DNA from: an uncultured Gammaproteobacteria bacterium
GTDB lineage: Bacteria; Patescibacteriota; Microgenomatia; CAYXHB01; CAZYTL01
Assembly (NCBI GenBank): GCA_964650355.1
Contig: CAZYTL010000005.1
Span: 23,209-87,208, forward strand
DNA: 64,000 nt
Reading direction: 5' to 3'
The notes under the pieces are model-generated. The model searched no databases, was not told the DNA's origin, and worked only from the letters and a program-made list of their open reading frames with translations. Each line of letters starts with the position of its first letter. Position 1 is the first letter of the stretch. Positions 4,755 to 50,100 of this stretch are shown here, one piece after another. The position numbers and the translations under genes were made by a program.

Positions 4755-6650
4755 TTACAACAGACCACTTATCACCTTCCCCCAATCCCAACTATTTACC
4801 ACCCCATCTTCGCTCCCGTCTCCTGCACTACCTAACCAATTACTCAACAAAAACCTCCACCCCGGTTCCTGGTATACCAATCTAATCGCATCTGCCACCA
4901 CATCTTCTCCTCCGCTTACCATATCACTAACCGTCACCGACCCTTGATTAATAAAATAATATTTTCCCAACAGATTCCATTGCTCGTTACTTACCTGCTG
5001 GTTCACTCTTACTTCTTCTGCTCCTCCGGTAAAATTTATCGTATACGGTACATCAGTTGGCCGTATCATCGATGGCCACCAACTCGCATATACCTCATAC
5101 TCTCCCGGCCGGTTAACCGTAAACGACCACGTAGCTGTATCTCCGCCTCTAATCAAATGGTTAAACATATGCGAACTACCGTAGTGCAACCCCTGGGGAT
5201 CAACGTATTCCTGCCACATATCCTGCACAAACGCAGTGCTAAACCCCTCATCGACATTATCAATAATCATCTCATTTGGATTTACAGTTGGTGTTGCCAT
5301 CGGACTCATACTTACATACTCATACGCTCCCATATCTGGTTTGGAATCCCGTGAATTACCTTCAAAGTCAAGGCTGACTCCTACCGCTGTTCCCTCATCT
5401 CTTACCAAACTATCAGACACTAACCGAAAATCATTCACTGCCCTGTCCACAAACCCCGGGTCCACATGCAAAGTATTTGGCCCATCCAAAGCATGGCTGG
5501 TCCCTGGTCCTCCGTACCAATCATTATAATCCATCACATTACTGCCCGATAAACTCCGATTATTAATCTGCTCATCAGTATTAAAGGCTGAAATATTGTC
5601 AATGATCCGGTTATTTTTCAGATTCTTAAAATCTGCAAATAATATTCCTGTCCTATTACCCACCACCGTGTTGTGGTAAATTTCATTTCCGTACCCCACC
5701 ACCGTGTCTGCCGGCCAACCATCCAGTTTGCCCGCGTCCAACCTGATTCCGGAATACGGATTCCCGTAAATCAAATTATTGGTTACTTTAGTCAACCTCC
5801 TCACATAAATCGCCGCCTGTGTATAATTACGACCGCATTCATAAATTCTATTACCGTCAATCACATTGGCGTCCGGCGACCCGATTCCAAAATGTCCACA
5901 ATCAGAAATCGTATTTCCCTGTATCAGGGTACCCACGGCATTCAGCTTAGTATCCACCCCTTCCCATACATTATAAATCGTATTACCAATCACTTTATTA
6001 TTCCGACAATGATGTGTATAACTAGCCCCGCCTTTGGACACATAAATCCCTTCACCTAATGAAATATCATAAACTTCATTATTTTCTAACAAATTATCAT
6101 CGCACGACGGATAATCAGGATTGTCATAGTGAATACCAATCTTAATTCCAATTGTCGTCCCGGAATAATACGTCGGATCTATATAAATATGATGAATCTT
6201 CATCCCCCGCACAATATTGTGGTCCGCCCATATATTCATCGCTTCTGCAATGAAATTCTTCAGCTCTAATCCTTCAATAATCCAGTAGTCATGCTTGATT
6301 CCCAAAAACTTTTGCACCACATAATTGCCGTCAATCACCACCCCGCTCGACTCTGGTTTAACCGTGATCGGTGCCTGAGCCGTTCCACTAGCCGCAGTTT
6401 CAGCGTACATATACAAAGGACTACTCCCCCCTCCGCCCACATTATAAGTACCACCTCGAATCAACAACCGGTCCCCGGCTCTTAGTTTGTTAATCCCGTA
6501 GCTGATCGATTTCCATGGGCTCTGACTGCTTCCGCTGTTGCCGTCATTTCCTGTGGTCGCCACATAATAATCCGCTGCCAGCGCTGTTTTGGACATTACC
6601 AGATTCATCCCCACGCCTATCAATAACCAAACCGCGATTCTTCTTAACAT
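4755..6650 (-). CDS. Secreted right-handed beta-helix protein (DYYVATTGNDGNSG...PW type N-terminus), with a beta-sandwich carbohydrate-binding-like module and dockerin-like tail.
   Basis: 631 aa with a signal peptide. The N-terminus AADYYVATTGNDGNSGSSQSPWKSI is typical of pectin-lyase-fold proteins. The C-terminal module is DTATWSF..PGEYEVYASWW..VPYTINF..VVADAIRLV. The tail is WRFLLSNWLGSAGDGSEDGVVNSWDWGKVISGLL. Confidence 0.75.
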   Translation of the reverse strand: MLRRIAVWLLIGVGMNLVMSKTALAADYYVATTGNDGNSGSSQSPWKSISYGINKLRAGDRLLIRGGTYNVGGGGSSPLYMYAETAASGTAQAPITVKPESSGVVIDGNYVVQKFLGIKHDYWIIEGLELKNFIAEAMNIWADHNIVRGMKIHHIYIDPTYYSGTTIGIKIGIHYDNPDYPSCDDNLLENNEVYDISLGEGIYVSKGGASYTHHCRNNKVIGNTIYNVWEGVDTKLNAVGTLIQGNTISDCGHFGIGSPDANVIDGNRIYECGRNYTQAAIYVRRLTKVTNNLIYGNPYSGIRLDAGKLDGWPADTVVGYGNEIYHNTVVGNRTGILFADFKNLKNNRIIDNISAFNTDEQINNRSLSGSNVMDYNDWYGGPGTSHALDGPNTLHVDPGFVDRAVNDFRLVSDSLVRDEGTAVGVSLDFEGNSRDSKPDMGAYEYVSMSPMATPTVNPNEMIIDNVDEGFSTAFVQDMWQEYVDPQGLHYGSSHMFNHLIRGGDTATWSFTVNRPGEYEVYASWWPSMIRPTDVPYTINFTGGAEEVRVNQQVSNEQWNLLGKYYFINQGSVTVSDMVSGGEDVVADAIRLVYQEPGWRFLLSNWLGSAGDGSEDGVVNSWDWGKVISGLL

Positions 6651-7333: not shown

Positions 7334-9562
7334 TTAATTATCAAAACGCCCCCCCTCCACCCAACTCACCCCATTCTGCAAACTCCCATCATTGTGATTA
7401 CCCGTCGCGTCGTGAACCACCGTTCCGCTGCCTTCATTAAACTTCCAGTAACCCACCAACCCGGCTGCACCCAGATCAACCTCTCGACTCATATCTGACT
7501 GAATCTGTTGCTGAGTCCTGGCATAATTCCACAACCTCAATTCGTCTTCCTCTCCCTGCAAACTGTAACTACTTACCGCTGAAGAAATATACATATCTTC
7601 TGTCGTGCCAATGGATCTCCCATTCAAAACACTTATATCAAAGTTCCCCACCAAATTTCCATCTAAATAAAAGCTCGCCTGCTGACTCCTGTCAGCCACC
7701 ACTGCCACCTGATGCCACTGATCATCCTTGATCCCCAACGACTTATCTGAATTCGCATATACAACCTGGCTTCCATCCCCCAAATATAATCTCAAATCAT
7801 CATCCTGGTTTGAATACCAAAACCAATACCCCGGCTGAGAAGCACTGCTCGCGCCCTTATAATCAATATTGAAATTTGAATTCTGCGTACTTGCCACCTT
7901 CACCCAAGCTTCAATCGAAAAATCCCCGCTCCCTACATCCAACTCCGGGACGTTAGCAAACCTCACTCGGTCGTCTATCCCGTCAAAATGCACCGCATAT
8001 TTAACCGGCGGCCTAATGATTAACTTCGCCCAATCCAGACTATTGATCACTCCGTCGGCTACTCCTTCAAAAATCTGGTTATTAGTCAACCAGCTAACTA
8101 ATAAACTCTTTGCCTGAGAGGCCCAAGGTATCGGCGTTACCGTCGGTGTCGGCACTATCCCTGACGCATATTCATACGCCCCGATATCATAAACTCCTTC
8201 TTGCGGACGGCTAATTCCCAAATAATCACTAGTGACAAAATCCACTGTTGTACCCGCATTAACCGCTGGCGATCCCGATTGCACGGAGTAATCACCACTG
8301 CCCGGATCAGTAAATTTTACCTCCCCCACCGTGGGGCTCGATAAGTTATTCGTCACCAAAACCCCGGCCGTAGTCTTAATATACGTCTCGCCGTTTTGGG
8401 GATTTACCACCAAATTATTTTGCACTAAATTATCGCTTCCGAAATCCTGATTGAACAAAATTCCCCATCCTCTTGGTTTCACAATCGTATTATTGGCAAC
8501 AAAAACACTATTACCATGATTTATTTTTGTACCAACATATATACCGCTCCCGTTAGCACTAGTATAAGAACTGTACCTACCCGGATTTATAATCACATTA
8601 TTAAACACATGATTCAACCCATGTCCCTGCACATAAATTCCGGCTCCAATAATGTCCGTAATAAAATTATTATAGACATCACACACACTTCCCGGATTAA
8701 TCATATAACCTCCCTCATGTGCTGTCTGCTGTTCAGTTCCTGTATTTGTTATCCGATTATGATGCGCGTCGCAATTTTCCACTGCTGATCCGATTTGAAT
8801 TCCCTTAGTGCCGATATCTTCCACCTGGTTACCGTAAACATGCACGCCCTTCAAAACCGGATCATAAATCGTGGCTGTTCCTCCGCAATTTAATTCATAA
8901 GCTCCCTCTACATAATGCGAACTTCCTAAATACATCCCCATCGAAATATTGTAAATATATATGTCATGAAAAGTAATGTTGTGTGTAGTTATTTCGGTTT
9001 ACCGCATCCTGAGCATCAATTTCTCCATCGTTATTATAGTCATACCCTCTCCAGCTGGTGGGGGACCCGTCTGGGCAGGTCGAATCCGCCTTACTTGACA
9101 CTCCGATTCCGGTTCCTCCTATTCCGGTGATTTCCAAATGATCGACTTCAAAATTGTCAGACTTATGCAATAAATTAATTCCCGTATTCGTAGATCCTGA
9201 AATCTTTATTCCGTAATTCACCCCTGCCGCCCCCGTTCCCGTAATTCTAATATGACTGCTATTGCTCACTTCTATCCCCGAAGACTGGCTGGTATTAATT
9301 ACTACTTGCCCCCTGAATTAATAAAAGTAATCGGTGTCGTGGACGATCTTTTAAAATTTATCAAATTCAACGCTCCTCGGTTTCCGGCTTCAATACACAC
9401 CGTATCTCCGGGTTTCACACTCGCATAATTACCTCTACCGTCAACCCTTGTTACCCCTGTGGAAATAGTAAAATCGCAACTCAGTGCTTCATAAACTACT
9501 TCCGGACTCATCATCCACCCGATCACGATTAATCCAACCATCCAAATCAATCTTCTCCTCAT
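7334..9562 (-). pseudogene. Disrupted member of the beta-helix family, with an internal dockerin-like module and a C-terminal LamG (concanavalin-like) domain. It is split into three ORFs by two frameshifts.
   Basis: ORF 9302..9562 carries the signal peptide and N-domain and stops at ...PITFINSGGK*. The intact paralog continues SGGQVM, so a 1-nt shift is likely. ORF 8964..9269 continues (IRITGTG...NRNNYTQHYFS*). ORF 7334..8941 resumes the helix in another frame (HDIYIYNISMGMYLGSS against paralog HDNYIHDVGAEALYIGGS), then carries SLLVSWLTNNQIFEGVADGVINSLDWAKLI plus LamG. Confidence 0.7.
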
Positions 9563-9649
9563 ATCATGACTCTACCACGATCCAAGTATCACGGAGCACA
9601 TAACACGTAGCATTCCGTTTACCCCTCATTACCATTTACAATTTACCGA

Positions 9650-11743
9650 TTACAAGTTACTTATTATCTCTACCCAGTCCCAACTATTCACCTTTCCGTC
9701 TTGGTTCCCATCACCTACTCCGGTCAACCAGTTCGCTAACACTTCCCACCAGTTGATCGGTACCGGCGTCAATGTTGGTGTCATAACCATTTGCATTCCG
9801 CAAATTCGGTACTGACCCGCGCGCGACCATGTACCCCAATTGCCAATCTGATTAACCATCGCCTGCTCTGTTCTGAAACCATAATTATTCGCCAACAGCT
9901 GCTCTCCCTGACCCGAAGGAGTGACCCACACAGAATATGTATGGTCTTCAAAACTAGCGGCCAACCTTACCTTATAATTCAAATTCGGGCTAAAGGTAAT
10001 CACCTGATCAGACTGGTATATATCCCCATTTCTAACATCAAAATAACCATCGGGATTTAATCTGAATAACATCGCGTAATCTGCATAATAGCTACCCGCA
10101 TCTTTGGAAAACGCCACTAAACCTTCTACCTCCCCGGTTGCCTGATTATCCCGGGGTGTCACCTCAAACTCGGCGGTAAAATCGCTAGTCAAATTCTGTG
10201 ACAAAGCATAGTTATCCCACCCCGGATCTCCGCCGGAATTGCCAGTTCCTAATCCGCTACTCAAGTAACATCCTGGTTCTAGGGTCGGAGTTGGCGCACT
10301 GCTCACATACTCATACGCTCCGATGTCAAATCCCCCTCCCTGTGGTCGGCTTACCCTAGCGTAATCAAACGTAATTTTCTGGCTCGTCAGATTTACCCCC
10401 ACATCTATCGCTTTTGATCCTCTTGTTAATGAATAATCATCCCCGGAAGGATTATTAAAATTCAACCCGCTATTATTCAACTGGGTAATATTATGAGAAA
10501 CCGTCACCGGCGCACTTCCGTATTGCTTGATATAAGAGCCATTGCCCCATCCGCTATAGTTCCCGGGATTAATAATAATATTATTCTCAAATCTGAAATC
10601 AGCTCCTAAATCAGGCGCAAATTTTATCCCGAAATTATGGGGGTTGATAATCGTATTATTCCACACATAATCAGACCCATTGGCGTTTTCCTCAAACTTC
10701 CAAATGGTAATTCCGTTTCCTTCGTTATTCCCCGTCGTTTTATTCACCCCCGCATTAATAATTACGTTGTTATAAACTCTATTCCCCCTATTCGCAAAAA
10801 TACTGATCCCTGTAGCTCCGGCATCCTTCACCCAGTTATTGTACAGGTCACACTCGCTACCTGTTTTAATATCCCAACCCACTTCCTGATACAACCTTTT
10901 TTTCAAACCCGTCGCTTCCGTATGATTTTGATAAACTTCACAATCCTCAACCGCCGAGCCTACTCCTCCTCCGTCCCAGCCGGTATTCTTTATCGTGTTA
11001 TTAAAAACCCTCACCCTTCTCAATACCGGCTCATATACCCGCTCATTTCCGCTATTGCAGCTTAACACCACCCCGGTACCATAAAAAGACCCTCCGATAT
11101 ATAATGCCTCTGCCCCTACGTCATGAATATAATTATCGTGCACTCGGGTATCATATTGTGTGAAGTTGCTGCGATTCACCACGTCGTCCTTATCATTTCC
11201 CGTAATCCCGTCATTGTCATAATCATAAGCTTTCCAGTCAGCCGTTGACCCGTCTGAGCACACCGGTTCAGTTTTTGTTGTTATTCCCTGCCCATCTGCT
11301 CCTGAAATCTCCACGTGATCTATCTCCAGATAACTGCTTTTATGTCCTGCATTAATCCCCACTCCGGCTGATCTGTTGATCTTAATTCCGTATTGATATC
11401 CACTCACCCCGCTCCCGGTAATCCGAATGTGCTGACTATTATGTACAGCTATCCCGTTTGAACCGCTACTGCTAATCATTACTTGCCCGCCGGAATTAAT
11501 AAATGTAATCGGTGCGGTCGCCGTCCCTTTGAAATTTTTCAAATTCAATCCTCCTCGATTTCCCGCCGTAATGCACACGGTATCTCCGGGCCCCACACCT
11601 GCATAATCGGTCCTCCCGTCAGCCGTCGTTCGACTGGTGGAAATCGTAAAATCGCAACTCACGGCCCCATAAACCACCCTCGGCATTATCAATCCACCCA
11701 TCGTCACTATAACGACCAACCCAATTAACCACCGTTTCCTCAT
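9650..11743 (-). CDS. Secreted beta-helix family protein with unknown C-terminal domain and dockerin-like tail.
   Basis: 697 aa. It has a signal peptide, an AVSCDFTISTS N-domain and helix rungs. The tail is INWWEVLANWLTGVGDGNQDGKVNSWDWVEIISNL. Confidence 0.8.
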   Translation of the reverse strand: MRKRWLIGLVVIVTMGGLIMPRVVYGAVSCDFTISTSRTTADGRTDYAGVGPGDTVCITAGNRGGLNLKNFKGTATAPITFINSGGQVMISSSGSNGIAVHNSQHIRITGSGVSGYQYGIKINRSAGVGINAGHKSSYLEIDHVEISGADGQGITTKTEPVCSDGSTADWKAYDYDNDGITGNDKDDVVNRSNFTQYDTRVHDNYIHDVGAEALYIGGSFYGTGVVLSCNSGNERVYEPVLRRVRVFNNTIKNTGWDGGGVGSAVEDCEVYQNHTEATGLKKRLYQEVGWDIKTGSECDLYNNWVKDAGATGISIFANRGNRVYNNVIINAGVNKTTGNNEGNGITIWKFEENANGSDYVWNNTIINPHNFGIKFAPDLGADFRFENNIIINPGNYSGWGNGSYIKQYGSAPVTVSHNITQLNNSGLNFNNPSGDDYSLTRGSKAIDVGVNLTSQKITFDYARVSRPQGGGFDIGAYEYVSSAPTPTLEPGCYLSSGLGTGNSGGDPGWDNYALSQNLTSDFTAEFEVTPRDNQATGEVEGLVAFSKDAGSYYADYAMLFRLNPDGYFDVRNGDIYQSDQVITFSPNLNYKVRLAASFEDHTYSVWVTPSGQGEQLLANNYGFRTEQAMVNQIGNWGTWSRAGQYRICGMQMVMTPTLTPVPINWWEVLANWLTGVGDGNQDGKVNSWDWVEIISNL

Positions 11744-11800
11744 ACATTCACTCTACCACAGCCCAGGGATCACATAACACAAATCACGTAGCTAATAACT
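11744..11800 (-). promoter_or_regulatory. Family promoter (TGGTAGAGTGAATGT-ATG) with two ATCACRTARC sites.
   Basis: cat|acattcactctaccacagcccagggatcacataacacaaatcacgtagc. Confidence 0.5.
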
Positions 11801-12380
11801 TTTAAAATAAAAAACAAATAAGTAAAGCCCTAAAATAAATATTCCTTCCTACCTATGGTTCCATCAGAGTATTTATCAATAATTATTTAATGCTTATAAA
11901 GTTTATAATATTAATATTATTATATTTTAACTATATAAATTTTTCATCTAAATATAGCACTTAATTATAACAAGATATAAGTAACCTGCAATTAAAATCT
12001 GGATAATTCGTCAATTTGGTTGACAATAGAGACTCGTAACCAGTTCAAAATTCGACAAATATCGCACATATTTATATAAAATTGTTACAAATAAATTATA
12101 AATTTTTAATACAATGCGTAAGCAATCTTCAAATATATGAATATTTCTACATAAAACAGGGTTTTTAAACAATAAAATATAAACCATCTATTATGCTAAA
12201 CTAGATAAACGTATATAGATAATAACATCATGAATCCCTGATCAACACAACTGAGAATGAATAGTTTGCTTACCTTTTGTGTGTAGTTCACAACGCGAAC
12301 ATCCAAACATGGAAACATCAACGTCAATCCATGGTTAAGAATGGTTGACTTATCAGATTTGATCTGTTACCCTTACATCA
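11790..12380. other. Roughly 600 bp strongly AT-rich non-coding stretch forming the left flank of the foreign cassette.
   Basis: Long A/T runs such as ataatattaatattattatatttt, with no ORF. It is the only such stretch in the array. It contains a ttgaca hexamer (near 12023) but no convincing -10. Confidence 0.6.
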
Positions 12381-12381
12381 T

Positions 12382-12777
12382 ATGAAAACCGATCCATTAA
12401 ACGCTTTGATATCAAATGATGCAAGAGCCACAGATAGGCAGAAACTCGCGGACCTTCTCACCCCTTATGTAGTAATAGATCAAAAATCACAAGAGTTCGG
12501 CTTTAAAGAAGCCTTCGAGGAGCTAGACAACGACACCAAAATTGAAATCTTTCTTGCAAGTATAAAGGCTCGTGCATTATTATTTGGCGTTACTGACGGG
12601 TCACGTCCTACAGAACTGATTTCCCTTGGAATTATGCCAGAGGGCAGCGTAAAGACCAGCCTCAAGCGCTTATTTGAAAACCGAAAAATAAAGAAAGGGA
12701 ATGACGGTAACTATTTTCTCCCTGCTTACCGTATCCTCGAACTATCTAAACGTCTTGTTACTAAACAACCAAAATAA
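12382..12777 (+). CDS. Hypothetical protein. First gene of a 4-gene foreign cassette. Possible winged-helix C-terminus.
   Basis: 131 aa. Tightly packed with the next gene (stop 12777, next start 12781). Composition is balanced in G and C, unlike its neighbours. Confidence 0.55.
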   Translation: MKTDPLNALISNDARATDRQKLADLLTPYVVIDQKSQEFGFKEAFEELDNDTKIEIFLASIKARALLFGVTDGSRPTELISLGIMPEGSVKTSLKRLFENRKIKKGNDGNYFLPAYRILELSKRLVTKQPK

Positions 12778-12780
12778 ATT

Positions 12781-13173
12781 ATGGATTCAAAACGAATTGA
12801 CGAACTTGAAAAAAGAGTGGAGAAGCTTGAACGGCTCCTACTCACTCCAGATCCAAAACCAACTAAGACCAAAAAAATGTCCCCGAAGGAATTTCTGCTC
12901 ACTAAAAGCGTAAAGTTTAGCATGCAGAAGGTCCTTGTACTCGGATATTACCTCGAACACATGGAAGGAATAGAATCATTCAATGTAATGGATCTTGAAT
13001 CAATATTCCGGGCTGCGAAGGAAAAACTACCTAAAAATATAAATGATATGGTTAACAAAAACGTCGCCCGCGGACTTATTGACGAAGCCAAGAGCCAAAA
13101 AGACTCTAAAAAAGCATGGTATCTAACCTCTACAGGAGAGAACTTGGTAGAAAATGAATTAAATCTAAACTAA
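12781..13173 (+). CDS. Hypothetical protein. Cassette gene 2. Coiled-coil N-terminus and possible winged-helix C-terminus (KAWYLTSTGENLV).
   Basis: 130 aa, with IDELEKRVEKLERLL. Confidence 0.55.
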   Translation: MDSKRIDELEKRVEKLERLLLTPDPKPTKTKKMSPKEFLLTKSVKFSMQKVLVLGYYLEHMEGIESFNVMDLESIFRAAKEKLPKNINDMVNKNVARGLIDEAKSQKDSKKAWYLTSTGENLVENELNLN

Positions 13174-13177
13174 CAAT

Positions 13178-13720
13178 ATGTCAAATAATTCATCGGTAGA
13201 ATTAACGGGAAAAATAGTAGAATTACTTTCGCCCTTAGAATCAGAAGAAAGACTGCGAATCATCGACGCCTCATTAATATTGCTTGGCGAGAAGCCAGCT
13301 GGGGCTGGAAAAAGCAAATATCTCCCTGATAGAGATGATGTTGCTATACTTCCGCAACGCGCACGCTTATGGATAGAGCAAAATAAAATCAAAGTGGAGC
13401 AAATTCAGCAAATATTCCAATTGGGCGATGCCGCTTTTGAAGTCATTGCATCACCCATTCCAGGGAAATCTACAAAGGATCAAACTTTAAATACTTATAT
13501 ACTCACTGGGATTGGTAATCTTCTCATAACAGGAGAGCCTTCCTTCCCGGATAATCAGGCACGTTCGTTGTGTAAAAATTCTGGTTGCTATGACAGTGCG
13601 AATCATTCTGCATATCTAAAAAATAGAGGGAATGTATTCACTGGTAACAAAAAGACCGGTTGGTCACTTACCGGTCCAGGACTTAAACTCGGCGCTGAAC
13701 TTATAAAGGAATTAAACTAA
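13178..13720 (+). CDS. Hypothetical protein. Cassette gene 3.
   Basis: 180 aa. No motif recognised. Confidence 0.5.
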   Translation: MSNNSSVELTGKIVELLSPLESEERLRIIDASLILLGEKPAGAGKSKYLPDRDDVAILPQRARLWIEQNKIKVEQIQQIFQLGDAAFEVIASPIPGKSTKDQTLNTYILTGIGNLLITGEPSFPDNQARSLCKNSGCYDSANHSAYLKNRGNVFTGNKKTGWSLTGPGLKLGAELIKELN

Positions 13721-13723
13721 TAC

Positions 13724-14506
13724 ATGCCTGACCCTAACAAAATATTAATCAACATACCAAGGGGTTTGCGTGAACCACTATTAGAGAGCTATCAAGAAAT
13801 CTCTCGGAATTACACCGAACATCGCTGGGAACCTTCAGAATTAAATGGGGGGAAATTCTCAGAAGCAGTCTATTCGATTATTGATGGAAGTATCAACGGT
13901 TCATTCGCTATAAAACCTTCGAAACCGAAAAATATGGTTAAAGCATGTCGCGATCTTGAAAATCTTCCTGCTAATCCAAACCGTGTTGGTGACAGAAGTC
14001 TACGCATCCTCATTCCACGTTTATTAATAAGTCTCTACGAAATACGGAGTAACAGAAACGTGGGGCATCTAGGTGGTGATGTTGATCCAAATTTTATGGA
14101 TGCTACGGCCGTTTTTAGTATAGCGAACTGGGTACTAGCAGAACTTATACGTATTTTCCATTCAATTTCAACAACAGAAGCTCGAGTAATTGTCAACGGG
14201 ATTGTGGAACGTAAACATCCACTCATTTGGGATGTTGGGAGTGTCAGACGAGTCTTAGACCCCAAGATGAGTAAAAAAGACCAAGCATTATTCCTTTTAT
14301 ATTCCAAGCCTGGATGGGTTACTGAAAAGGATCTTTTTCAATGGGTTGAATACAGCAATTCAAGTATATTTCGTAAATACATACTCATCCCATTACACAA
14401 TATCCGGTTGGTTGAGTATGACCAGTCTCAGGGCCAAGTGCGCATCTCTCCACTTGGTAGCGAATATATAGAGGATAGAATTTTAAAAACACGCACCCAA
14501 TCATGA
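13724..14506 (+). CDS. Hypothetical protein. Cassette gene 4. Possible HEPN-like R-x(4-6)-H motif (RSNRNVGH).
   Basis: 260 aa. The start is 4 nt after the stop of gene 3. Confidence 0.5.
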   Translation: MPDPNKILINIPRGLREPLLESYQEISRNYTEHRWEPSELNGGKFSEAVYSIIDGSINGSFAIKPSKPKNMVKACRDLENLPANPNRVGDRSLRILIPRLLISLYEIRSNRNVGHLGGDVDPNFMDATAVFSIANWVLAELIRIFHSISTTEARVIVNGIVERKHPLIWDVGSVRRVLDPKMSKKDQALFLLYSKPGWVTEKDLFQWVEYSNSSIFRKYILIPLHNIRLVEYDQSQGQVRISPLGSEYIEDRILKTRTQS

Positions 14507-14603
14507 GAGGAACCAGAATCTAAAGCCCAACGACTATGGTTAAGCCGCTTTCGACGCAAGCTCACCTAAGGATTTTTAGCTACTATTCTACTATTACAGA
14601 CTG

Positions 14604-16622
14604 CTACAGGCTACTGATTACATTCGCCCAGTCCCAACTATTCACTTTCCCGTCTCCATTCTGATCTCCTTTGTTACTAAACCATTTCGCCAATAAATAC
14701 TTAAAGTCTCTCACCCGGTATCTTACCTGATCACTAATCACCATCTCCCCAAACGCTGTCGAATCGTTCGCCGGCTTACTCTCCCTCAATGGAAACCATA
14801 ATAAATAATTGTCCCTGCTCCCCCAATCGTCATCATCATTGATCCCTAAGTCAAACCCGATTGTCTGATTCACGGGCACGCTACTTTGCCCCAAATTGGG
14901 ATCCCAAGGTATGGCCACTTCTATCACATACCCATCGCTGCTGGTAGTCACCGCGTGCTCCACATCAATCGTGCCACTAATCGCCCCATGCTCCGCTATC
15001 CGGTTTTGTAGATCAATCGTATATTGGTGGTCATTCCCATCATAACCAACCTGTCCGTCCCTGTCCCCATCCACAAATATCTCCACCCCGTCATCATCCC
15101 ATATATTAGCCGACTCATTACTCACCAAGACATCATCCGTTACCTTCACCCCTACATATAAATATTGCCCATCCCATGCTGTCTGCCACCTCCCGCTCAC
15201 ATCACTCGCCGGCTCATTCACCAAGGCATATCCAAAAGCCCCTTCGTTTACTGGTATCCCTTCCCAGTCGCTTAAATCACCGTCTATCACCATCGGGGCT
15301 ACCACCCGCACTGCTTCCACCGGCACAATCGGAATTACCTCACTTCGGTACTCAAAAGCTCCCAAGTCGGTTTTTCCGCCCTGAGGCCGCAGCACATCAT
15401 CATAATCAAATAATGGGAAAACACCAGTATTCCTGCCTTTATCAATCGCCACACTTGATTGCGCCGTTAACCGATAATTGTCAGCACTAGAATTAACAAA
15501 ATTCACAGAAGCCACCGACCCTCTGTAGTTATTACTGGCATTCCCCTGGATAGAAGTATTTCCTCCCACCACCAAATTATCAAAAATTTGGCTCCCTGAG
15601 GCAACAATCCCCCCCTTCACGCTATTAACTATCGTATTATTATAAACTACGCTCAATCCATAATCGAGAATCCTCACGCTGTCCGTTTTCGATCCTATCA
15701 CTACATTATTGTAAATTCGAGTTTTTTCTGATGTAGATACCCGCCCGTTGGCAATTCCGGTATCCCAAGAATTAATCACCAAGTTATTGTATACGTCGCC
15801 GGAGGCATCTGCTAATTTAATCCCCCCTTCAAGTACATGTTGCACTTGACCATTTAACAAACCCGTATCTTTGACAATATTATGATGCACTTTGACATTT
15901 TTAGCCATCTTAATATTAATTCCATCAAAACCGCTTCGCTCTACCAAATTAGAGCTTACCTCTGCTCCGTCAATATAGCCAAGTTCACTTTCCGGCTGCC
16001 CTGGCGGTGGATCTGTCCCTAAATAAATTGCCTCATGGTCGATATTTAAAAAATGATTATGATGAACATAAACATCATATAAAGTTTTTTGGCCCCGAGC
16101 TTTAAAGGCTACACCACCCTGGTAAGGTAAATTAATAATATTATCCTTCATTGCTATATGATCAATTTCAAACCCATGCATATCTCTATATTCCTCCATC
16201 CATATCCCATTGTGCGCTCCGATTATTTGGATACCACAATCTTGACCTGCGCGCGAGTAATCCGAACCGCAATTGCTGGAAACTCCACTTCCCGAAATCC
16301 TTAAATATGCACAATTATTCATTTTAATTCCAGCGCGATCTGTTCTGATCACCACCTGACCATCTTTATTGACAATTGTGATCCAAGAAGAAGCAGTTCC
16401 TTTTATATTCTGGAACGTTAACGGACCTCGATCTCCGGCTGCCAGACAAATTGTATCTCCTGGTTTCACAGAGGAATAGTTTGATTGTTCATCTTGTCCG
16501 TCCACCGTACTCACACTCAAAGGTACAATAAAATCACAACTCGGCGCTCCGTGAACCACTTCCGGAACCATCAACCATGCTGCTATCTCAAATACAAATA
16601 ACCCAATCCATCTTCCTCTCAT
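14604..16622 (-). CDS. Secreted beta-helix family protein with CBM9-like module and dockerin-like tail.
   Basis: 672 aa. The CBM9-like block is almost identical to that of 275..2425 (MVIDGDLSDWEGIPVNEGAFGYALVNEPASDVSG). The tail is LLAKWFSNKGDQNGDGKVNSWDWANVISSL. Confidence 0.8.
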   Translation of the reverse strand: MRGRWIGLFVFEIAAWLMVPEVVHGAPSCDFIVPLSVSTVDGQDEQSNYSSVKPGDTICLAAGDRGPLTFQNIKGTASSWITIVNKDGQVVIRTDRAGIKMNNCAYLRISGSGVSSNCGSDYSRAGQDCGIQIIGAHNGIWMEEYRDMHGFEIDHIAMKDNIINLPYQGGVAFKARGQKTLYDVYVHHNHFLNIDHEAIYLGTDPPPGQPESELGYIDGAEVSSNLVERSGFDGINIKMAKNVKVHHNIVKDTGLLNGQVQHVLEGGIKLADASGDVYNNLVINSWDTGIANGRVSTSEKTRIYNNVVIGSKTDSVRILDYGLSVVYNNTIVNSVKGGIVASGSQIFDNLVVGGNTSIQGNASNNYRGSVASVNFVNSSADNYRLTAQSSVAIDKGRNTGVFPLFDYDDVLRPQGGKTDLGAFEYRSEVIPIVPVEAVRVVAPMVIDGDLSDWEGIPVNEGAFGYALVNEPASDVSGRWQTAWDGQYLYVGVKVTDDVLVSNESANIWDDDGVEIFVDGDRDGQVGYDGNDHQYTIDLQNRIAEHGAISGTIDVEHAVTTSSDGYVIEVAIPWDPNLGQSSVPVNQTIGFDLGINDDDDWGSRDNYLLWFPLRESKPANDSTAFGEMVISDQVRYRVRDFKYLLAKWFSNKGDQNGDGKVNSWDWANVISSL

Positions 16623-39976: not shown

Positions 39977-40009
39977 TATTTTTAATCTAGCACACCCTTA
40001 CAGTTACCA

Positions 40010-41458
40010 CTACTGTTTTACCACTCTTACCCAATCCCAACAATTCACCTTCCCGTCTCCATTCTGATCTCCGATGGCGCTAAACCAATTGACCAACCAC
40101 GACTTCAAATTAGTCAGGTCTAAAGAAATTTTTTCAATCCGGATTTTGTCAAGTTTGGTGTTCATTTCCCGTCCTTGAAAGCGGAGAGTGTAGACCGGCC
40201 CGTTTGTGAGAGTAAAGATTCGGGGATCAGTTTTAGGCGAATCAAAAGTACCGCTGCCCCGGTAGCTGACCTGATTCCAAACCCAAGAAGTGGGAGGTTG
40301 AGTATCAATGGTTTGGTAGAGGATATCCCAGATGTCAGCAGTAGTAGGAGAGGTTTGGTTGATGGTAACGTAGAAGGAGTTATCGTTACCGGCAGTAGGC
40401 CAGACTCTGCCTGAGACTAAGTAGTCACCAGATTGGGCAACTCTGAATTGGAAGGCGGCGTTTCCATTATCTGCTTGGGAAGAATAGATATATTGACCTC
40501 CGGAAGCCGTGGAGTCAGAGTTGATAGTCATGGAAGATAGTTGCATAGACTCGGCCTCCGATTCATAGGCAGTTTGGATCAGAGCCGGAGTAGGTGTCGG
40601 GCCGGTCGTTGGGGAAGGCGTAGGAGTAGATGTGGGACCTCCCGGACAGGGAGGTCCTCCTTGATCAGGATTCACTTCTGCACAACTGGTACCTCTCCGA
40701 TACTCATCGTGATAGATAATCTCTGTATCACTATAAATGTCTTTGTTTCTATAAATCCCCATCTTCAAATAAGGCCCAGTATTATAATCGTAATCGTAGC
40801 CTACTGGCCCACCGTAATCTAAAACAGGATCCGGATTGCCATCCATCCAAACCCTCACATAATGGTTTCCTGATAGTCGGTAATCAAAACGAGTATTAAA
40901 AATAAAATCATGCCATACTCCCTGTGTTGCTTTTCCAATCCATTTATCCTGATTAGATCCTTCTGTAGATCTGATGCCAATATAAAAATCGCCCCCATAA
41001 ATGTACTGCAAGCTTAAAATCGGGCTATCTCCTCCGGTAGCCGCATGCCATTGGGCTATTATATTAAATCTGTAAGAACCATTTGGCTGATACCTAGGGT
41101 CAATATATACTGAAAACCCCTGCCAAACGTCTGTTGAATAAGGGATTTTGTCTTGATCATTAGCTCCATTTAACATAATTTCGGAGCGTTCATTTCCTCC
41201 CATGGGGTTTGGTGTGGGTATGTTTCCATCTCGCACTATGTTTCGCACCGCATATTTGCCGCTTCTTACCGGACTGGTTACCACCTGCGTCGAATCGGTA
41301 CAACAATGGCCACCATCTCGCCACCCGCTTAAATCCCCACTCTCAAAATCCAACACCTTGTGTTGAATATATTGAGCTCTTGCTGGGAACACAGCCACAA
41401 ATCCCATTACCCAGCATGCAACCACCAATCCAGCAATTCGCCACCATTTCCTGTCCAT
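40010..41458 (-). CDS. Secreted concanavalin-like putative polysaccharide lyase (PF14099-like jelly roll) with CBM6/35-like module and dockerin-like tail.
   Basis: 482 aa. The lyase block is ERSEIML...QWHAATGGDSPILSLQY. The CBM block is AYESEAESMQLSSMTINSDSTASGGQYIY..FQFRVAQSGDYLVSG..DNSFYVTI. The tail is LKSWLVNWFSAIGDQNGDGKVNCWDWVRVVKQ. Confidence 0.7.
   Translation of the reverse strand: MDRKWWRIAGLVVACWVMGFVAVFPARAQYIQHKVLDFESGDLSGWRDGGHCCTDSTQVVTSPVRSGKYAVRNIVRDGNIPTPNPMGGNERSEIMLNGANDQDKIPYSTDVWQGFSVYIDPRYQPNGSYRFNIIAQWHAATGGDSPILSLQYIYGGDFYIGIRSTEGSNQDKWIGKATQGVWHDFIFNTRFDYRLSGNHYVRVWMDGNPDPVLDYGGPVGYDYDYNTGPYLKMGIYRNKDIYSDTEIIYHDEYRRGTSCAEVNPDQGGPPCPGGPTSTPTPSPTTGPTPTPALIQTAYESEAESMQLSSMTINSDSTASGGQYIYSSQADNGNAAFQFRVAQSGDYLVSGRVWPTAGNDNSFYVTINQTSPTTADIWDILYQTIDTQPPTSWVWNQVSYRGSGTFDSPKTDPRIFTLTNGPVYTLRFQGREMNTKLDKIRIEKISLDLTNLKSWLVNWFSAIGDQNGDGKVNCWDWVRVVKQ
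40150..40640. repeat. Left arm of a roughly 480 bp inverted duplication. It encodes the CBM6/35-like module of 40010 and is G-rich on the plus strand, against the local skew.
   Basis: The reverse complement of 40270-40320 is cctctaccaaaccattgatactcaacctcccacttcttgggtttggaatcag. The matching 43420-43470 reads ctctatcaaaccattgacacccaacctcccacttcttgggtttgggatcag. Confidence 0.65.
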
Positions 41459-41589: not shown

Positions 41590-43737
41590 ATGAATAAACC
41601 TAAACACCTCTCATTTCTATTTCTTATCAGACTAGCCGTCAAGATTTCACTTTCTCTATTGCTCTTTCTATTTGTTAGTTCTCCGGTTTACGCCCAATCC
41701 ACAGTCACCATTGTTCCCACATTCCAATCTCTGGGCATTTATTGGCAACACTCTCAGGGGTCAAGTACCGCCCAAGTCCAATACCGGCCCTCAGGAACAA
41801 CTACCTGGCACACGGCTCACCCCATGTGGTATGCCGGTAACTCTGAATACCGCAGCAGCATTGTGCTACTAAACCCGGGGACTACATATGAAGTCCGTCT
41901 GACTCTGGGCACTTCCTCAGTCACTACCACCGCCACCACCTGGTCGGAAAACTTCCCCATCGGCCAAACCGTTACCTTGCCCGAAAACACCTCTCAAACC
42001 GTAACCATCAATAATTCAGGCACTGCCAACGGCTATCTGTTATATACCCATCAATCAGGCAAAACCGCCACCATCAATACTACCGCCACCAATAACATCA
42101 GAATCAACGGGTCCTATGTAATTATTCGTGGTTTGACGTTAAAAAACGCCGGCACGGACGCCATCAAAATTAGTAGAGAGTCTCACGACATCATCGTCGA
42201 AAACAATACTGTCACCAACTGGGGCGGATCAGGAAATAGTAATAACATGGCCGCAGCCGTCAGCACCGACCAACCAGGAAATGGTTACAACGCCGGACCT
42301 CGAATTATTATTCAAAACAATCTATTCACTACCCCCAGAGGCAACTCCAATACCTGGGACACTGCTCATCCCCATGGCCCTCAGGGAGTAACCCTGTGGG
42401 AAACCGACGGACAAAACGTCATCCGCAGCAACACCGTCACTTCCAATAATAGCCATTATTATAACGACGGGATCGGCGGAGGCAAAAATTCTAGTACCAG
42501 AGGCAACGTTTACCGCGACAGCGACATCTATAACAACACCGTGAAATATTGTCGGGATGATGGATTAGAAATCGAAGGAGGCAATATGAACGTTAGAATA
42601 TGGAATAACCATATCGATAACTGTTTTGTGGGCATCGCTACTGCAGCTAACCTCACTGGCCCCAATTACATTTTCCGCAACCTGATCACCAACGGCCGCC
42701 AGAGCGATGGCAATATCAAGTCAGCCGCCTTCAAGTTAGGCAGCGGCAGCACCTTTGGCGCCATCTACATTTACCACACCACTGTAAATAACGTCAGAAA
42801 CGGCCTCACCAACTGGGGCGGAGCAGTCTATAACCTCACCGCCAGAAATAACATCTTAAACACAATTCAAGATAGTATCGGCTCTACCATCGCTTCCTCT
42901 AACATTTATGACCACAACACTTGTGCCAATCCTGAAACTGGCTGCACCACCGGCACTGTAGCGTTCGAAAGCGGCTCTTATATTCCCACCTCCAGCATCG
43001 CTGTAGACAAAGGTCTTCCTATTCCTAATTTCAATGATGGCTATCTCGGCTCAGCTCCTGACATCGGCGCTTTCGAAAGAGGCGGTACCGTACCCAATCC
43101 CACAGCGACTCCCACATCTGGCCCTACTCCCACCACTGGTCCGTCGCCCACGCCCCCCCTCATCCAAACCGCCTACGAACTCGAAGCCGAATCCCTGCAA
43201 CTCTCTTCTCCCATGACCATCAACTCTGACTCTTCAGCTTCCAATGGTCAATACATCTCTTCCCCAATAGCTGAACAAGGAATCGCTGCTTTCCAATTCA
43301 AAGTTGCCCAAGATGGTGACTATCTCATCTCCGGTAAGGTTTTCCCTACCGCTGGGAATGATAACTCTCTTTACATCACCATCGATCAGTCCTCTCCCAC
43401 TGCCGCAGATACTTGGGATATTCTCTATCAAACCATTGACACCCAACCTCCCACTTCTTGGGTTTGGGATCAGGTCAGCTACCGGGGCACAGGTACCTTT
43501 GACTCTCCCCAAACTGATCCTCGTATCTTTACTCTCTCTGCCAACCACACCTACGCTCTCTATATCCAGTCCCGGGAAATCAACACCAAACTCGATAAAC
43601 TCCGCATTGAGAAAACTACCACCACTCCACCCACTTTGCAGCAATTTCTCACTCACTGGCTCACCTCTACCTTCGACCAAATCTTAGACGGCCAAGTCAA
43701 CAGCCTAGATTTTTCCCAAATCATAACCAATCTCTAA
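41590..43737 (+). CDS. Secreted beta-helix protein (plus-strand member): FN3-like N-domain, helix rungs, CBM6/35-like module, degenerate dockerin-like tail.
   Basis: 715 aa with a signal peptide. The rungs include IIVENNTVTNWGG and IWNNHIDN. The module AYELEAESLQLSSPMTINSDSSASNGQYISS...FQFKVAQDGDYLISG is about 80% identical to the one in 40010. The tail is LQQFLTHWLTSTFDQILDGQVNSLDFSQIITNL. Confidence 0.75.
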   Translation: MNKPKHLSFLFLIRLAVKISLSLLLFLFVSSPVYAQSTVTIVPTFQSLGIYWQHSQGSSTAQVQYRPSGTTTWHTAHPMWYAGNSEYRSSIVLLNPGTTYEVRLTLGTSSVTTTATTWSENFPIGQTVTLPENTSQTVTINNSGTANGYLLYTHQSGKTATINTTATNNIRINGSYVIIRGLTLKNAGTDAIKISRESHDIIVENNTVTNWGGSGNSNNMAAAVSTDQPGNGYNAGPRIIIQNNLFTTPRGNSNTWDTAHPHGPQGVTLWETDGQNVIRSNTVTSNNSHYYNDGIGGGKNSSTRGNVYRDSDIYNNTVKYCRDDGLEIEGGNMNVRIWNNHIDNCFVGIATAANLTGPNYIFRNLITNGRQSDGNIKSAAFKLGSGSTFGAIYIYHTTVNNVRNGLTNWGGAVYNLTARNNILNTIQDSIGSTIASSNIYDHNTCANPETGCTTGTVAFESGSYIPTSSIAVDKGLPIPNFNDGYLGSAPDIGAFERGGTVPNPTATPTSGPTPTTGPSPTPPLIQTAYELEAESLQLSSPMTINSDSSASNGQYISSPIAEQGIAAFQFKVAQDGDYLISGKVFPTAGNDNSLYITIDQSSPTAADTWDILYQTIDTQPPTSWVWDQVSYRGTGTFDSPQTDPRIFTLSANHTYALYIQSREINTKLDKLRIEKTTTTPPTLQQFLTHWLTSTFDQILDGQVNSLDFSQIITNL
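43090..43630. repeat. Right arm of the inverted duplication (CBM6/35-like module of 41590).
   Basis: See the 40150-40640 entry. The mirror-image spurious ORFs 40175..40414(+) and 43234..43680(-) both contain VADLIPNPRSGRL. Confidence 0.65.
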
Positions 43738-48322: not shown

Positions 48323-50100
48323 CTACCAGTCTCTTAACTGAGCCAGAAATCAAACACCCTTCTCCTCTGCATTTTTTTATCATCAAGGACCACAATGACA
48401 TAATGTTAGAAATTAAATAAAAATCTTCATTTCCAATTCTTCTGTAACTCCTACCTCCATCCCGACAGCCAAGTGTCACTCCTAAAATGATCAACCGCGG
48501 ATCAATATCCATCCGCATAAGACCAGTCCTATTGAATGACTGAATTCCCCGTTGTGCCCTCCTGCTCCTAACATCACCCAATTTCAGGAGCGATTTATCC
48601 AAATTCCGAAGCTCCATTAATTAGGGGTACAACTATTCGCTAACCCCGACACTTCTGACGCAGAAAGAGCACGGTTATACACTCTAATTTCATCAAGATC
48701 CCCTGTAATATCAGCACCATCACTAACCCCCCTACAATCCATTCCAACTCCCACATAACAAATATGTCCAATCGGTGGTCCAGTGGCTCGGCTAACAACG
48801 CTCACCCCGTTAACATACAACCTAGCCATACCGTCTGTATCGGAATAAGTTAAAGCCACGTGACTCCATTGGCCAACTGGTAAAGGATTAGAGGCATTAA
48901 GGTAATCATAACCTCCTCCTCGGTGAATTAAGCCTTGAGGACGATTTTGACTGTCAAGATTTATAATGAATGTACTCCGGCCATCAATAACTAGGTTATA
49001 AGAACCGCTTTGCGTTCTCGGCCTAACCCAAGCCGCAATCGTAAAATCTGTCACATCAAAATCGCCCCCATCAGTACCAGAGGGACTGATAAAAGTTCTA
49101 TTCCTACCGTCGATACTAAGAGCTTGCCCCCCACACCCACCGTTGATCCATGTATCTCCAGTCGGATCCAAGAGAGAAGTATGATAATTATATCCCGACA
49201 TATCAAATACATTACTATCTGATTCGTTATCGAACGAATAATATAGAATCAGCCCTGGTTCAGGTGAGGGTTCTGGTGTGACCATAGTTGTCGGTGTCGG
49301 GGTAGGTGTCGACGTCGGAGGGACAGGTTCTATACACAATCCGGTATCAGGATCGCACACCTCCGGATCAGTACATCCACTAACTACACAACTCGATACA
49401 CACGTTCCCGTATCCGGATCACATACCCCATACCCGTCACATACACTCGGATCTGTAGTACAATCATACCCCCCACATAGATAAGTCGGATTGTCCCCAC
49501 TCGGCTCACATTGCCCCCCACTTCCACACGCCGCAGATGACCAACACTCTAATGTACATGGATTCCCCGGATCTTTCGCCTGACATGCATATTCCCCTAC
49601 CCCTCCATACGGATTACATACCTCACATTGCCCACACGCACTCGGATCATCAGGATCACATGGCGTCAGACTCCCAGGCGGTGTCGTCGGTCCCGGCCCA
49701 GGCGGTACCGTCACCTCCGGTGGCGGTGTCGGTGTTGGTCCTCCTCCTGTACCAAACCCTTCAAATATCTCTATCCCCAAAAAATATTGCACCAAAATCG
49801 CTATCGCATACGATAACGCCAACACCGCAAACCCTATCAAACACTGCGTCAACCTCTCCCTCGCCTTCTGTAAATTAGATTGATCATCTCCACTCGTTAA
49901 CCACTGAAACCCTCCCCACAACAAACATAAAAATACCACCACTCCCCCTGCTATCAACACCATCCCCAATACCTTCGACAGAAATGTCGGTATCGATATC
50001 ACCCCACTAAATAGATTCCCCACCTCCTGTAAGTGCCCCAACAATTGCGTCACTGGCTGCATGCTAACCTTAGTATCTCATTCGCCTTTTTACCCTGTCA
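48190..50100. repeat. Tandem duplication unit 1: galT 3' end, spacer, surface-protein gene, promoter.
   Basis: 48190-48322 recurs at 50128-50280. 49500-50100 recurs near-identically at 51430-52036. Confidence 0.7.
48617..50062 (-). CDS. Membrane-anchored Cys-rich surface protein with N-terminal two-TM hairpin (TrbC/VirB2-like topology), PT linker, CxxC-rich region and C-terminal LamG-like domain.
   Basis: 481 aa. TM1 is VLGMVLIAGGVVVFLCLLWGGFQWL. The loop is TSGDDQSNLQKARERL. TM2 is CLIGFAVLALSYAIAILVQYFL. There are many CGQCEVC/CTLEC motifs. The LamG block is FTIAAWVRP...LYVNGV. Confidence 0.65.
   Translation of the reverse strand: MQPVTQLLGHLQEVGNLFSGVISIPTFLSKVLGMVLIAGGVVVFLCLLWGGFQWLTSGDDQSNLQKARERLTQCLIGFAVLALSYAIAILVQYFLGIEIFEGFGTGGGPTPTPPPEVTVPPGPGPTTPPGSLTPCDPDDPSACGQCEVCNPYGGVGEYACQAKDPGNPCTLECWSSAACGSGGQCEPSGDNPTYLCGGYDCTTDPSVCDGYGVCDPDTGTCVSSCVVSGCTDPEVCDPDTGLCIEPVPPTSTPTPTPTTMVTPEPSPEPGLILYYSFDNESDSNVFDMSGYNYHTSLLDPTGDTWINGGCGGQALSIDGRNRTFISPSGTDGGDFDVTDFTIAAWVRPRTQSGSYNLVIDGRSTFIINLDSQNRPQGLIHRGGGYDYLNASNPLPVGQWSHVALTYSDTDGMARLYVNGVSVVSRATGPPIGHICYVGVGMDCRGVSDGADITGDLDEIRVYNRALSASEVSGLANSCTPN

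Follow-up and report, generated by a model that had tools for sequence, protein, structure and literature searches.

What kind of unit is formed by the four plus-strand genes that interrupt a long minus-strand array in this stretch of contig CAZYTL010000005.1? The stretch, referred to here as the window, comprises 64,000 nucleotides (nt), and an earlier reading of its letters (the original prediction) had singled out these genes as a foreign cassette with a possible role in antiphage defence, as a toxin-antitoxin system or as some other mobile cargo. The cassette consists of four open reading frames (ORFs) on the plus strand at 12382-14506, each with an ATG start: ORF1 (12382-12777) encodes a small protein of 131 amino acids (aa) with a probable C-terminal winged helix-turn-helix (MPEGSVKTSLK..G.Y.LP); ORF2 (12781-13173) a protein of 130 aa with an N-terminal coiled coil and, at the C-terminus, a probable winged-helix module; ORF3 (13178-13720) a protein of 180 aa, the cognate partner of ORF4; and ORF4 (13724-14506) a protein of 260 aa. 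Gaps of 3, 4 and 3 nt separate ORF1 from ORF2, ORF2 from ORF3 and ORF3 from ORF4; the predicted sizes, positions and tight packing are thus correct, whereas the overlap that the prediction allowed for does not exist. Its statement that the cassette runs opposite to its neighbours also holds, as all other genes between 275 and 41458 are encoded on the minus strand and plus-strand genes resume only at 41590. The explanation that we favour, with about even confidence in its two parts taken together, is that the segment from approximately 11850 to 14550 was acquired horizontally as a self-contained operon and that the cassette represents a mobile module with winged-helix partners, of the HEPN toxin-antitoxin or abortive-infection type.

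Acquisition is argued by three features of the cassette: it does not share the strand skew of the genome, its GC content at third codon positions (GC3) is 0.35 compared with 0.475 for native genes, and it breaks up a co-directional array. Third-position G/C skew was read on the plus strand for every gene, whichever strand encodes it. Native genes on either strand have values of -0.27 to -0.77 (mean -0.51, standard deviation 0.18), and because the sign is the same for genes on both strands, the skew follows the strand of the DNA, independently of the direction in which a gene is read. The values for ORF1, ORF2, ORF3 and ORF4 are -0.31, -0.06, 0.00 and -0.17, respectively, and the pooled cassette differs clearly from the native genes (-0.13 over 705 codons versus -0.51; binomial p = 1.7e-9). 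The contrast between a balanced cassette and biased native genes drawn in the original prediction is therefore real for the four genes taken together, but it does not extend to ORF1 by itself, which with about 49 informative sites is statistically not separable from native genes, nor to every native gene, as the gene at 40010-41458 is also unskewed. Along the sequence, the skew-free block spans approximately 11850 to 14550, and the native skew is back at about 14550.

The strand asymmetry of the window is unusually strong for a bacterial genome, with third-position skew reaching -0.77 and, in 59 of the 64 segments of 1 kb, an overall GC skew of about -0.2 to -0.5; the segments that deviate lie at 12-14 kb, at 14-15 kb (-0.18, in part occupied by the cassette) and at 40-41 kb. 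The last of these (GC skew 0.00 in 40001-41000) coincides with the minus-strand gene 40010-41458, which encodes a polysaccharide lyase (PF14099, E = 3e-34) and is the sole other gene without skew (third position +0.06). It may be another recently acquired gene, or it may have been inverted recently.

As predicted, none of the four proteins belongs to a recognised family: scans against the Pfam, NCBIfam, PHROGs and PADLOC profiles gave no match above threshold. ORF4 nevertheless has a large number of relatives, with more than 1,650 among 90%-identity clusters that are 60-74% identical to it, about 260 aa long and in no case named. A profile search of 1.84 billion representatives retrieved 1,273 clusters (50% identity) at E <= 1e-3, including 282 at E <= 1e-30; among the 150 matches listed, most relatives have 240-280 aa, and the shorter ones cover the profile only in part. 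In a set of 185,579 genomes, one per species, relatives were found in 361, which belong to more than 10 phyla. The nearest relatives include those of Saccharibacteria and Kaiserbacteria, and the family is also present in Nomurabacteria and Acidobacteriota, in many Alphaproteobacteria (Bradyrhizobium, Methylobacterium, Hyphomicrobium, Sphingopyxis), in Planctomycetota, Verrucomicrobia, Chlamydiae, Cyanobacteria, Chloroflexi and Gaiellales, and in Bacteroidota, Nitrospiraceae and Myxococcales. The suggestion that the module might be new is thus right in that the libraries searched hold no name for it, but the pair formed by ORF3 and ORF4 is widespread and not peculiar to the genome of the window. 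The ORF3-ORF4 segment itself is also present in a short contig assembled from run SRR14802573.

A structural model of ORF4 (AlphaFold2, AF2; mean predicted local distance difference test score, pLDDT, 84.8) predicts a HEPN-like four-helix bundle in residues 1-165 (13724-14218, plus strand), followed by a MarR-like winged helix domain in residues 168-253 (14225-14482, plus strand). The bundle helices comprise residues 13-31, 42-58, 90-109 and 122-146, and the modelled up-down core carries an insert between helices 2 and 3 (residues 59-89), as is usual for HEPN domains. HEPN proteins are characterized by an Rx4-6H motif with a polar residue after the arginine and by a further conserved acidic residue within helix 2, frequently as part of Ex3[KR] (PMC3710099, Anantharaman et al. 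2013). All three features are found in ORF4. The R-x6-H motif, pointed out already in the original prediction, is formed by R108 (14045-14047) at the end of helix 3, which extends to residue 109, and H115 (14066-14068) in the following loop, the place of the HEPN active site, and the acidic residue E47 is located within helix 2; in the family consensus it heads an E-x3-R motif (E47-V-V-Y-R) as compared with E47-A-V-Y-S in the window. Across 86 family members, with identities down to 28%, E47, R111, H115, D126 and W136 are invariant, and R108 and an Asn at the next position are kept in at least 90%. The only Pfam family that recurred among weak matches was Abi_C (PF14355), which was hit by 6 of the 86 members (E = 0.02-0.1) and by the consensus (E = 0.045); the alignment covers exactly the R...H motif (residues 103-137) and reaches 13-14 bits compared with a gathering threshold of 24 bits. 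A fold comparison found HEPN domains for the ORF4 model, yet generic four-helix bundles score equally, and a search of BFVD returned generic winged-helix matches only. Based on bundle and motif, ORF4 is predicted to be a metal-independent RNase domain of the HEPN type (with R108/R111, H115 and E47) fused to a winged helix, and we consider it likely that the protein belongs to the HEPN superfamily.

ORF4 is rarely encoded alone. In 79 of 86 loci of its family, a co-oriented ORF of 117-239 aa ends between -8 and +43 nt from the ORF4 start; 39 of these partner ORFs overlap the start and 11 abut it. This is the layout of type II toxin-antitoxin systems, in which a small upstream partner and a co-oriented neighbour form an adjacent pair with overlapping or abutting frames in shifting genomic contexts. 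In an iterated search, 64 of the partners proved to be homologues of ORF3, and 20 have the C-terminal module typical of ORF2; five of those 20 match both profiles. The N-terminal part of ORF3 is a helical hairpin (IVELLSPLESEERLRII), which is followed by a linker, by a small unit of helix and strand and, at the C-terminus, by a winged helix that was identified by fold and has the invariant residues C132, C137, N142 and H143. The five double matches (loci L031, L068, L073, L078 and L082) are chimeric partners that combine the N-terminal hairpin of ORF3 (independent E-values of 1e-10 to 1e-13) with the ORF2-type module and thus tie ORF2, ORF3 and ORF4 together. Inspection by eye had raised the suspicion that ORF2 and ORF3 are paralogues; profile-profile comparison with hhalign gave no support for overall homology, and only the chimeric partners connect the two, which indicates that they are related by domain shuffling and not by paralogy. 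A 381-aa protein (P0209) considered as a fusion of ORF3 and ORF4 was rejected, as its gene call appears to be frameshifted.

The genes that directly adjoin the ORF3-ORF4 unit, 130 in all, are heterogeneous. Among them are three matches to Recombinase, two to Resolvase and two to Phage_integrase as well as single methylases, ArdC and HepT; the remainder are housekeeping singletons. This lack of a common theme indicates that ORF3 and ORF4 stand by themselves as a module of two genes and move from one context to another. At one locus (L005) a tRNA gene (6043-6113) is located about 900 nt 5' of the first cassette gene and a Resolvase gene 2.6 kb 3' of the cassette, a layout that would be compatible with an island integrated at a tRNA.

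The two leading genes have a different distribution. For ORF1 we found 30 homologues (48-65% identity), one in a genome of the Terrybacteria, which belong to the candidate phyla radiation (CPR), and the rest in metagenomes; ORF1 is missing from all 80 genome loci with ORF4 relatives, and the nearest ORF4 relative (74% identity) belongs to a three-gene cassette without ORF1. A weak match to AbiEi (E = 1.2e-3) aligns residues 85-125 with positions 26-66 of the 207-position profile, and the ORF1 family consensus weakly matches Penicillinase_R and PH0730-like_N over residues 86-115; as far as can be judged from such hints and from its C-terminal sequence, which is typical of this fold, ORF1 has a probable C-terminal winged helix-turn-helix. 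The C-terminal module of ORF2 (consensus YYLE..F...DL...F..A....P.N.......RG......LT..GE..VE), which also forms the C-terminus of the 20 alternative ORF4 partners, is probably a winged helix as well, and ORF2 weakly matches a PHROG family of transcriptional regulators (E = 4.5e-3). The original prediction of winged-helix proteins is therefore borne out by fold for ORF3 and the C-terminus of ORF4, and by weak sequence hints for ORF1 and ORF2. ORF2 is 55-61% identical to the second gene of other ORF1-led cassettes and 57-63% (L005, L007, L010, L022) or 42% (L069) identical to the first gene of three-gene cassettes. A separate ORF2-family gene 5' of the partner is present in about 12 of 77 loci, and ORF2 is thus an optional third component of the module.

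In every context examined, ORF1 homologues head a cassette, and in 27 of the 30 loci for which a second gene was called, this gene is of the ORF2 family. What comes after this leader varies. The third gene encodes 71-173 aa and is of at least five types, whereas the fourth encodes an ORF4 relative (33-35% identical to that of the window), a PLD-like nuclease of 237-251 aa with the motif FHDRFIIVD (PLDc_2, E = 3e-5), a protein of 222 aa that weakly matches DUF4145 (E = 0.15) or a protein of 239-270 aa without family assignment. The PLD-like proteins match PDC-S05 of PADLOC (E = 3e-18 and 5e-16) and also NsnC and DrmC. GmrSD (E = 2e-27) occurs as last gene behind a different second gene. Third- and fourth-gene types mix freely, and the pairing seen in the window, an ORF1-ORF2 leader with ORF3 and ORF4 of the main clade, was seen in no other locus. 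A constant leader in front of interchangeable nucleases resembles modular conflict systems, and of the arguments from context it speaks most strongly for ORF4 as an effector rather than a regulator. Together with the translationally coupled two-gene core and its shifting neighbours, the exchange of the last gene for PLD-like or GmrSD nucleases lends support, at the level of gene content and sequence, to the toxin-antitoxin or defence function suggested originally.

Two of these loci contain further genes of the conflict type. In L124, a full GmrSD type IV restriction enzyme is encoded at 4986-6584, after an ORF1-like gene and a different second gene of 139 aa. In L109, a 151-aa protein encoded at 5954-6406 beside the sister cassette has a classic RNxxxH motif and a weak match to HEPN_Cthe2314 (E = 4e-4).

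Alternatively, the cassette might follow no antitoxin logic at all, with the winged-helix modules of ORF1, ORF2, ORF3 and the effector recognising foreign nucleic acid such as modified or structured DNA, assembling on it and activating the nuclease, and with ORF3 as adaptor or sensor instead of inhibitor. The free mixing of third and fourth genes suits such a sensor-effector system, and so does GmrSD as one of the variants, since this is a modification-dependent restriction enzyme. In addition, variant effectors have an N-terminal module of their own, and the ORF2-type profile weakly matches the N-termini of the PLD-like (E = 0.005) and DUF4145-like (E = 0.02) proteins; the high conservation of ORF4 is more like that of an enzyme than that of a fast-evolving toxin. 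However, these matches between modules are weak and leave the C-terminus of ORF4 unmatched, the cassette encodes no NTPase, helicase or other signalling component, and the tight core of two translationally coupled genes, the small partner being upstream, has the arrangement of classical type II toxin-antitoxin systems. We therefore regard a sensor-effector system as unlikely.

For the toxin-antitoxin or abortive-infection module that we prefer, we propose the following course of events. ORF4 would be the effector, a predicted HEPN RNase, which ORF3 would bind, probably via its conserved N-terminal helical hairpin, and thereby keep silent, while the winged helix of ORF3 might help to repress the operon. 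Loss or displacement of the partner, for example upon phage infection or transcription shut-off, would release the RNase, which might then cut cellular or phage RNA, so that growth stops. ORF1 and ORF2 would be accessory proteins and, as probable winged helices, would probably set expression via sites in the AT-rich leader of the cassette, which are described below. Such a module might also have an anti-phage role.

Several observations weigh against this explanation. With 50-74% identity across phyla, ORF4 is unusually conserved for a toxin. Type II toxin-antitoxin modules are expected to be carried frequently on plasmids, phages and other mobile elements, but a tblastn search for the ORF4 family in 72,556 PLSDB plasmids and 50,697 INPHARED phage genomes, collections that are biased to cultured hosts, found none, and 2.9 million IMG/VR viral contigs contained a single truncated match. 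Three loci (L063, L071, L080) have no partner gene, and defence and mobile-element genes make up a small minority of the neighbours. With respect to ORF4 itself, the residue after R108 in the window protein is Ser and not the usual Asn, the model has its lowest confidence in the motif loop (mean pLDDT 53 at residues 111-120), no curated HEPN family of Pfam, NCBIfam or PADLOC was matched significantly, and profile searches of the PDB with alignments of close and of diverse relatives gave chance-level matches only. Owing to the low confidence of the model in the motif loop and the lack of a significant profile match, membership of ORF4 in the HEPN superfamily is not proven.

Upstream of ORF1 there is an AT-rich tract of 638 nt on the plus strand (11744-12381) with a GC content of 27%, and of 23% over 11780-12250, compared with 40% for other intergenic DNA of the window; the original prediction had put its length at roughly 600 bp. 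Relatives also have long upstream gaps (447-1167 nt, and 713 nt in another), whose GC content was below that of the locus in both relatives measured (L087, L090). No similarity was found between the upstream DNA of the window and that of relatives. The tract is probably the regulatory region of the cassette itself, acquired together with it. A structured RNA, be it a type III antitoxin or a retron msr, was considered for the window and rejected, because an Rfam search of the cassette region and the upstream tract gave no match and folding of the tract revealed no stable structure (z = -0.5 to +0.5).

Within the tract, the heptamer TAGATAA occurs as a direct repeat on the plus strand at 12202-12208 and 12216-12222, 180 and 166 nt before the ATG of ORF1. 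The motif was derived from ten discovery loci, among which it had no global significance, and was then tested on 31 independent upstream regions of ORF1-led cassettes. There it occurs 23 times, compared with 7.0 +/- 2.7 occurrences in shuffled sequences, none of 1000 shuffles reaching 23, and it is present in 15 of the 31 loci (6.2 expected); across the whole window it is not enriched (9 occurrences versus 9.8 expected). The pair of repeats is therefore a candidate operator for one of the winged-helix proteins.

Such an operator suggests sequence-specific DNA binding, which also fits an ordinary transcription-regulator cassette of four DNA-binding proteins, in which the bundle of ORF4 would be non-catalytic and serve ligand binding or oligomerisation and which might regulate something else, such as a mobile element or the glycan-degrading genes around the cassette. 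The winged helices of ORF3 and ORF4 and the weaker hints for ORF1 and ORF2 agree with this, as does the equally good match of ORF4 to generic bundles in the absence of any significant HEPN profile. Yet the invariance of E47, R111, H115 and D126 in 86 members, at the catalytic positions of HEPN domains, is unexpected for a mere scaffold, and a regulator would hardly be exchanged for PLD-like and GmrSD nucleases, as ORF4 is in sister cassettes. Furthermore, ORF3 and ORF4 travel as a pair without conserved target genes, and the foreign composition of the cassette makes a function linked to the native array less likely. A purely regulatory cassette thus seems quite unlikely to us.

Directly 5' of ORF1 a weak promoter-like element, TTGACT-N17-TACCCT (12346-12374, plus strand), encloses the palindrome CAGATTTGATCTG (12354-12366); this element was recognised by reading the sequence and was not reported by a consensus promoter scan. 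About half of the related cassettes, among them those of L087, L090, L091, L093, L102 and L116, have a promoter close to the sigma-70 consensus, TTGACA-N16-18-TAnAnT, at a fixed distance of 63-83 nt 5' of the ORF1-like start; the window cassette lacks it. Many relatives also have long inverted-repeat hairpins upstream of ORF2- or ORF1-led cassettes, with stems of up to about 28-35 bp around an AT-rich core of 100-140 nt and with stem sequences that vary by locus. Examples are those of L005 (6667-6861; stem of about 28 bp, z = -11.5), L022 (4654-4875; z = -11.0), L111 (382-603; z = -7.3), L091 (3463-3644; z = -5.5) and L010 (4688-4871; z = -5.0). The 3' arm stops 134-190 nt 5' of the first gene in 12 loci, and 21 of 106 upstream regions lie above the 95th percentile of 458 control segments with respect to hairpin folding. 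Rfam searches of L005, L007, L010 and L022 gave no match, and the upstream tract of the window does not contain the long hairpin of its relatives. The hairpin may function as an RNA, as a recombination site or as an insulator.

If these hairpins were recombination or transposition sites, the cassette could be the cargo or addiction module of an unrecognised integrative element, its genes serving the element and not the host. Their conserved placement before the first gene is consistent with this, and so are the patchy spread of the family over more than 10 phyla at 50-74% identity, the serine or tyrosine recombinases that occasionally adjoin it and the tRNA gene near the L005 cassette. But in the window there is no hairpin, and searches in and near the cassette detected neither a recombinase nor a tRNA, nor direct or inverted repeats at its flanks; the plasmid and phage collections lack the family, and its neighbours are mostly housekeeping genes. 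We consider a cargo or addiction module of an integrative element very unlikely and retain the acquired HEPN module with winged-helix partners as the preferred explanation.

The array into which this module is set consists of about 20 paralogous, co-directional genes for secreted proteins (275-41458, minus strand) resembling right-handed beta-helix proteins and polysaccharide lyases, which carry CBM9, F5/8-type-C, Laminin_G_3 or Golvesin_C modules and several of which end in the common motif G(D/N)GKVNSWDW. It represents a very large outlay on extracellular glycan binding or degradation. The stop codon of ORF4 is separated by a spacer of 97 nt (14507-14603), in which a terminator scan found none, from the convergent stop of the native gene at 14604-16622; on the other side, the gene at 9650-11743 flanks the cassette and its upstream tract. 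A search of the metagenome collection for relatives of the flanking 697-aa protein found none. Elsewhere in the array, two minus-strand ORFs (9302-9562 and 8964-9269, within 8942-9649) resemble the N-terminal signal region and then the start of the beta-helix of the neighbouring 697-aa and 672-aa proteins, and this region looks like a truncated or frameshifted paralogue, i.e. a pseudogene. Outside the array, the minus-strand gene at 48617-50062 encodes a protein with an N-terminal T4SS_pilin domain (PF18895, E = 2e-9) and a lectin-like Laminin_G_3 domain, which may be a surface-filament adhesin.

HEPN effectors with a small controlling partner are already known, and because HEPN RNases controlled in this way are an established theme, the category to which we assign the cassette is not new. 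The family itself, the combination of HEPN and winged-helix domains, the winged-helix partners and the effector-swapping cassettes led by ORF1 and ORF2 are not contained in the libraries searched. We tentatively propose, with somewhat less than even confidence in the two statements combined, that ORF3 and ORF4 are the founding pair of a large undescribed family of HEPN-winged-helix toxins and partners, and that ORF1 and ORF2 mark an unrecognised modular defence architecture, found in a Terrybacteria genome and in metagenomes, in which a winged-helix leader with a common TAGATAA operator, and often a 200-nt hairpin, drives interchangeable HEPN-like, PLD-like or GmrSD nucleases. CPR bacteria (Patescibacteria) are generally regarded as poor in recognised defence systems. 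As the carriers of the ORF4 family are partly culturable (Bradyrhizobium, for example sp. PUT101, Methylobacterium, for example sp. J-070, Sphingopyxis, for example sp. LC363, and Puia), these proposals are directly testable.

Among known systems, the type II/VII toxin-antitoxin system HEPN-MNT (HepT/MntA) is likewise a small two-gene operon in which the larger or downstream gene encodes a HEPN RNase with an Rx4-6H motif that is controlled by a neighbouring gene, as we predict for the cassette. In contrast to HEPN-MNT, the partner in the cassette is a winged-helix protein and not a minimal nucleotidyltransferase (MNT): ORF3 gave no nucleotidyltransferase match, and its model consists of helices and a winged helix. 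ORF4 differs in addition by its C-terminal winged helix and does not match the HEPN/DUF86 families of Pfam. A second likeness is to Abi_C ('Abortive infection C-terminus'), which we take to be the HEPN domain of AbiJ and to which ORF4 shows the weak, sub-threshold similarity over its R...H motif described above. In ORF4, however, the nuclease-like domain is N-terminal and followed by a winged helix, and there is an obligatory partner gene.

For the leader genes, the nearest comparisons are with regulators. In AbiE, a winged-helix antitoxin and regulator heads an abortive-infection operon, and the weak AbiEi match of ORF1, also below threshold, covers its probable winged helix; the cassette has no AbiEii/DUF1814 nucleotidyltransferase, though, and ORF1 with its 131 aa is considerably shorter than the AbiEi profile. 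This was the only match of the cassette in PADLOC-DB v2, in which ORF2, ORF3 and ORF4 had none at E <= 1. Stand-alone winged helix-turn-helix regulators of the BrxR/CapW type precede diverse defence systems, similar to the conserved ORF1-ORF2 leader that, together with a common upstream motif, precedes interchangeable nuclease effectors; yet ORF1 and ORF2 comprise only about 130 aa, have no WYL or WCX domains, and homology to these regulators was not detected. PDC-S05 and the PLD-nuclease defence proteins NsnC and DrmC have their counterpart in the PLD-like nuclease that fills the slot of ORF4 in sister cassettes, but not in the window.

The closest mechanistic precedent for ORF3 and ORF4, by comparison of mechanism and not of sequence, is the type IX retron Retron-Kva2. 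In this retron, the HEPN subunit is enwrapped by a winged-helix protein that sits near the active site and, together with the multicopy single-stranded DNA (msDNA), encircles that site; the HEPN nuclease is held inactive, and the system acts by abortive infection (bioRxiv 10.64898/2026.07.14.738597). The two differ in that the retron HEPN protein has no canonical Rx4-6H motif, whereas ORF4 has one, and in that no ORF of the size of a reverse transcriptase lies between the native genes flanking the cassette and neither Rfam nor folding indicated an msr/msd. Should ORF3 indeed inhibit ORF4, the pair would represent a retron-independent case of a winged-helix protein that controls a HEPN nuclease.

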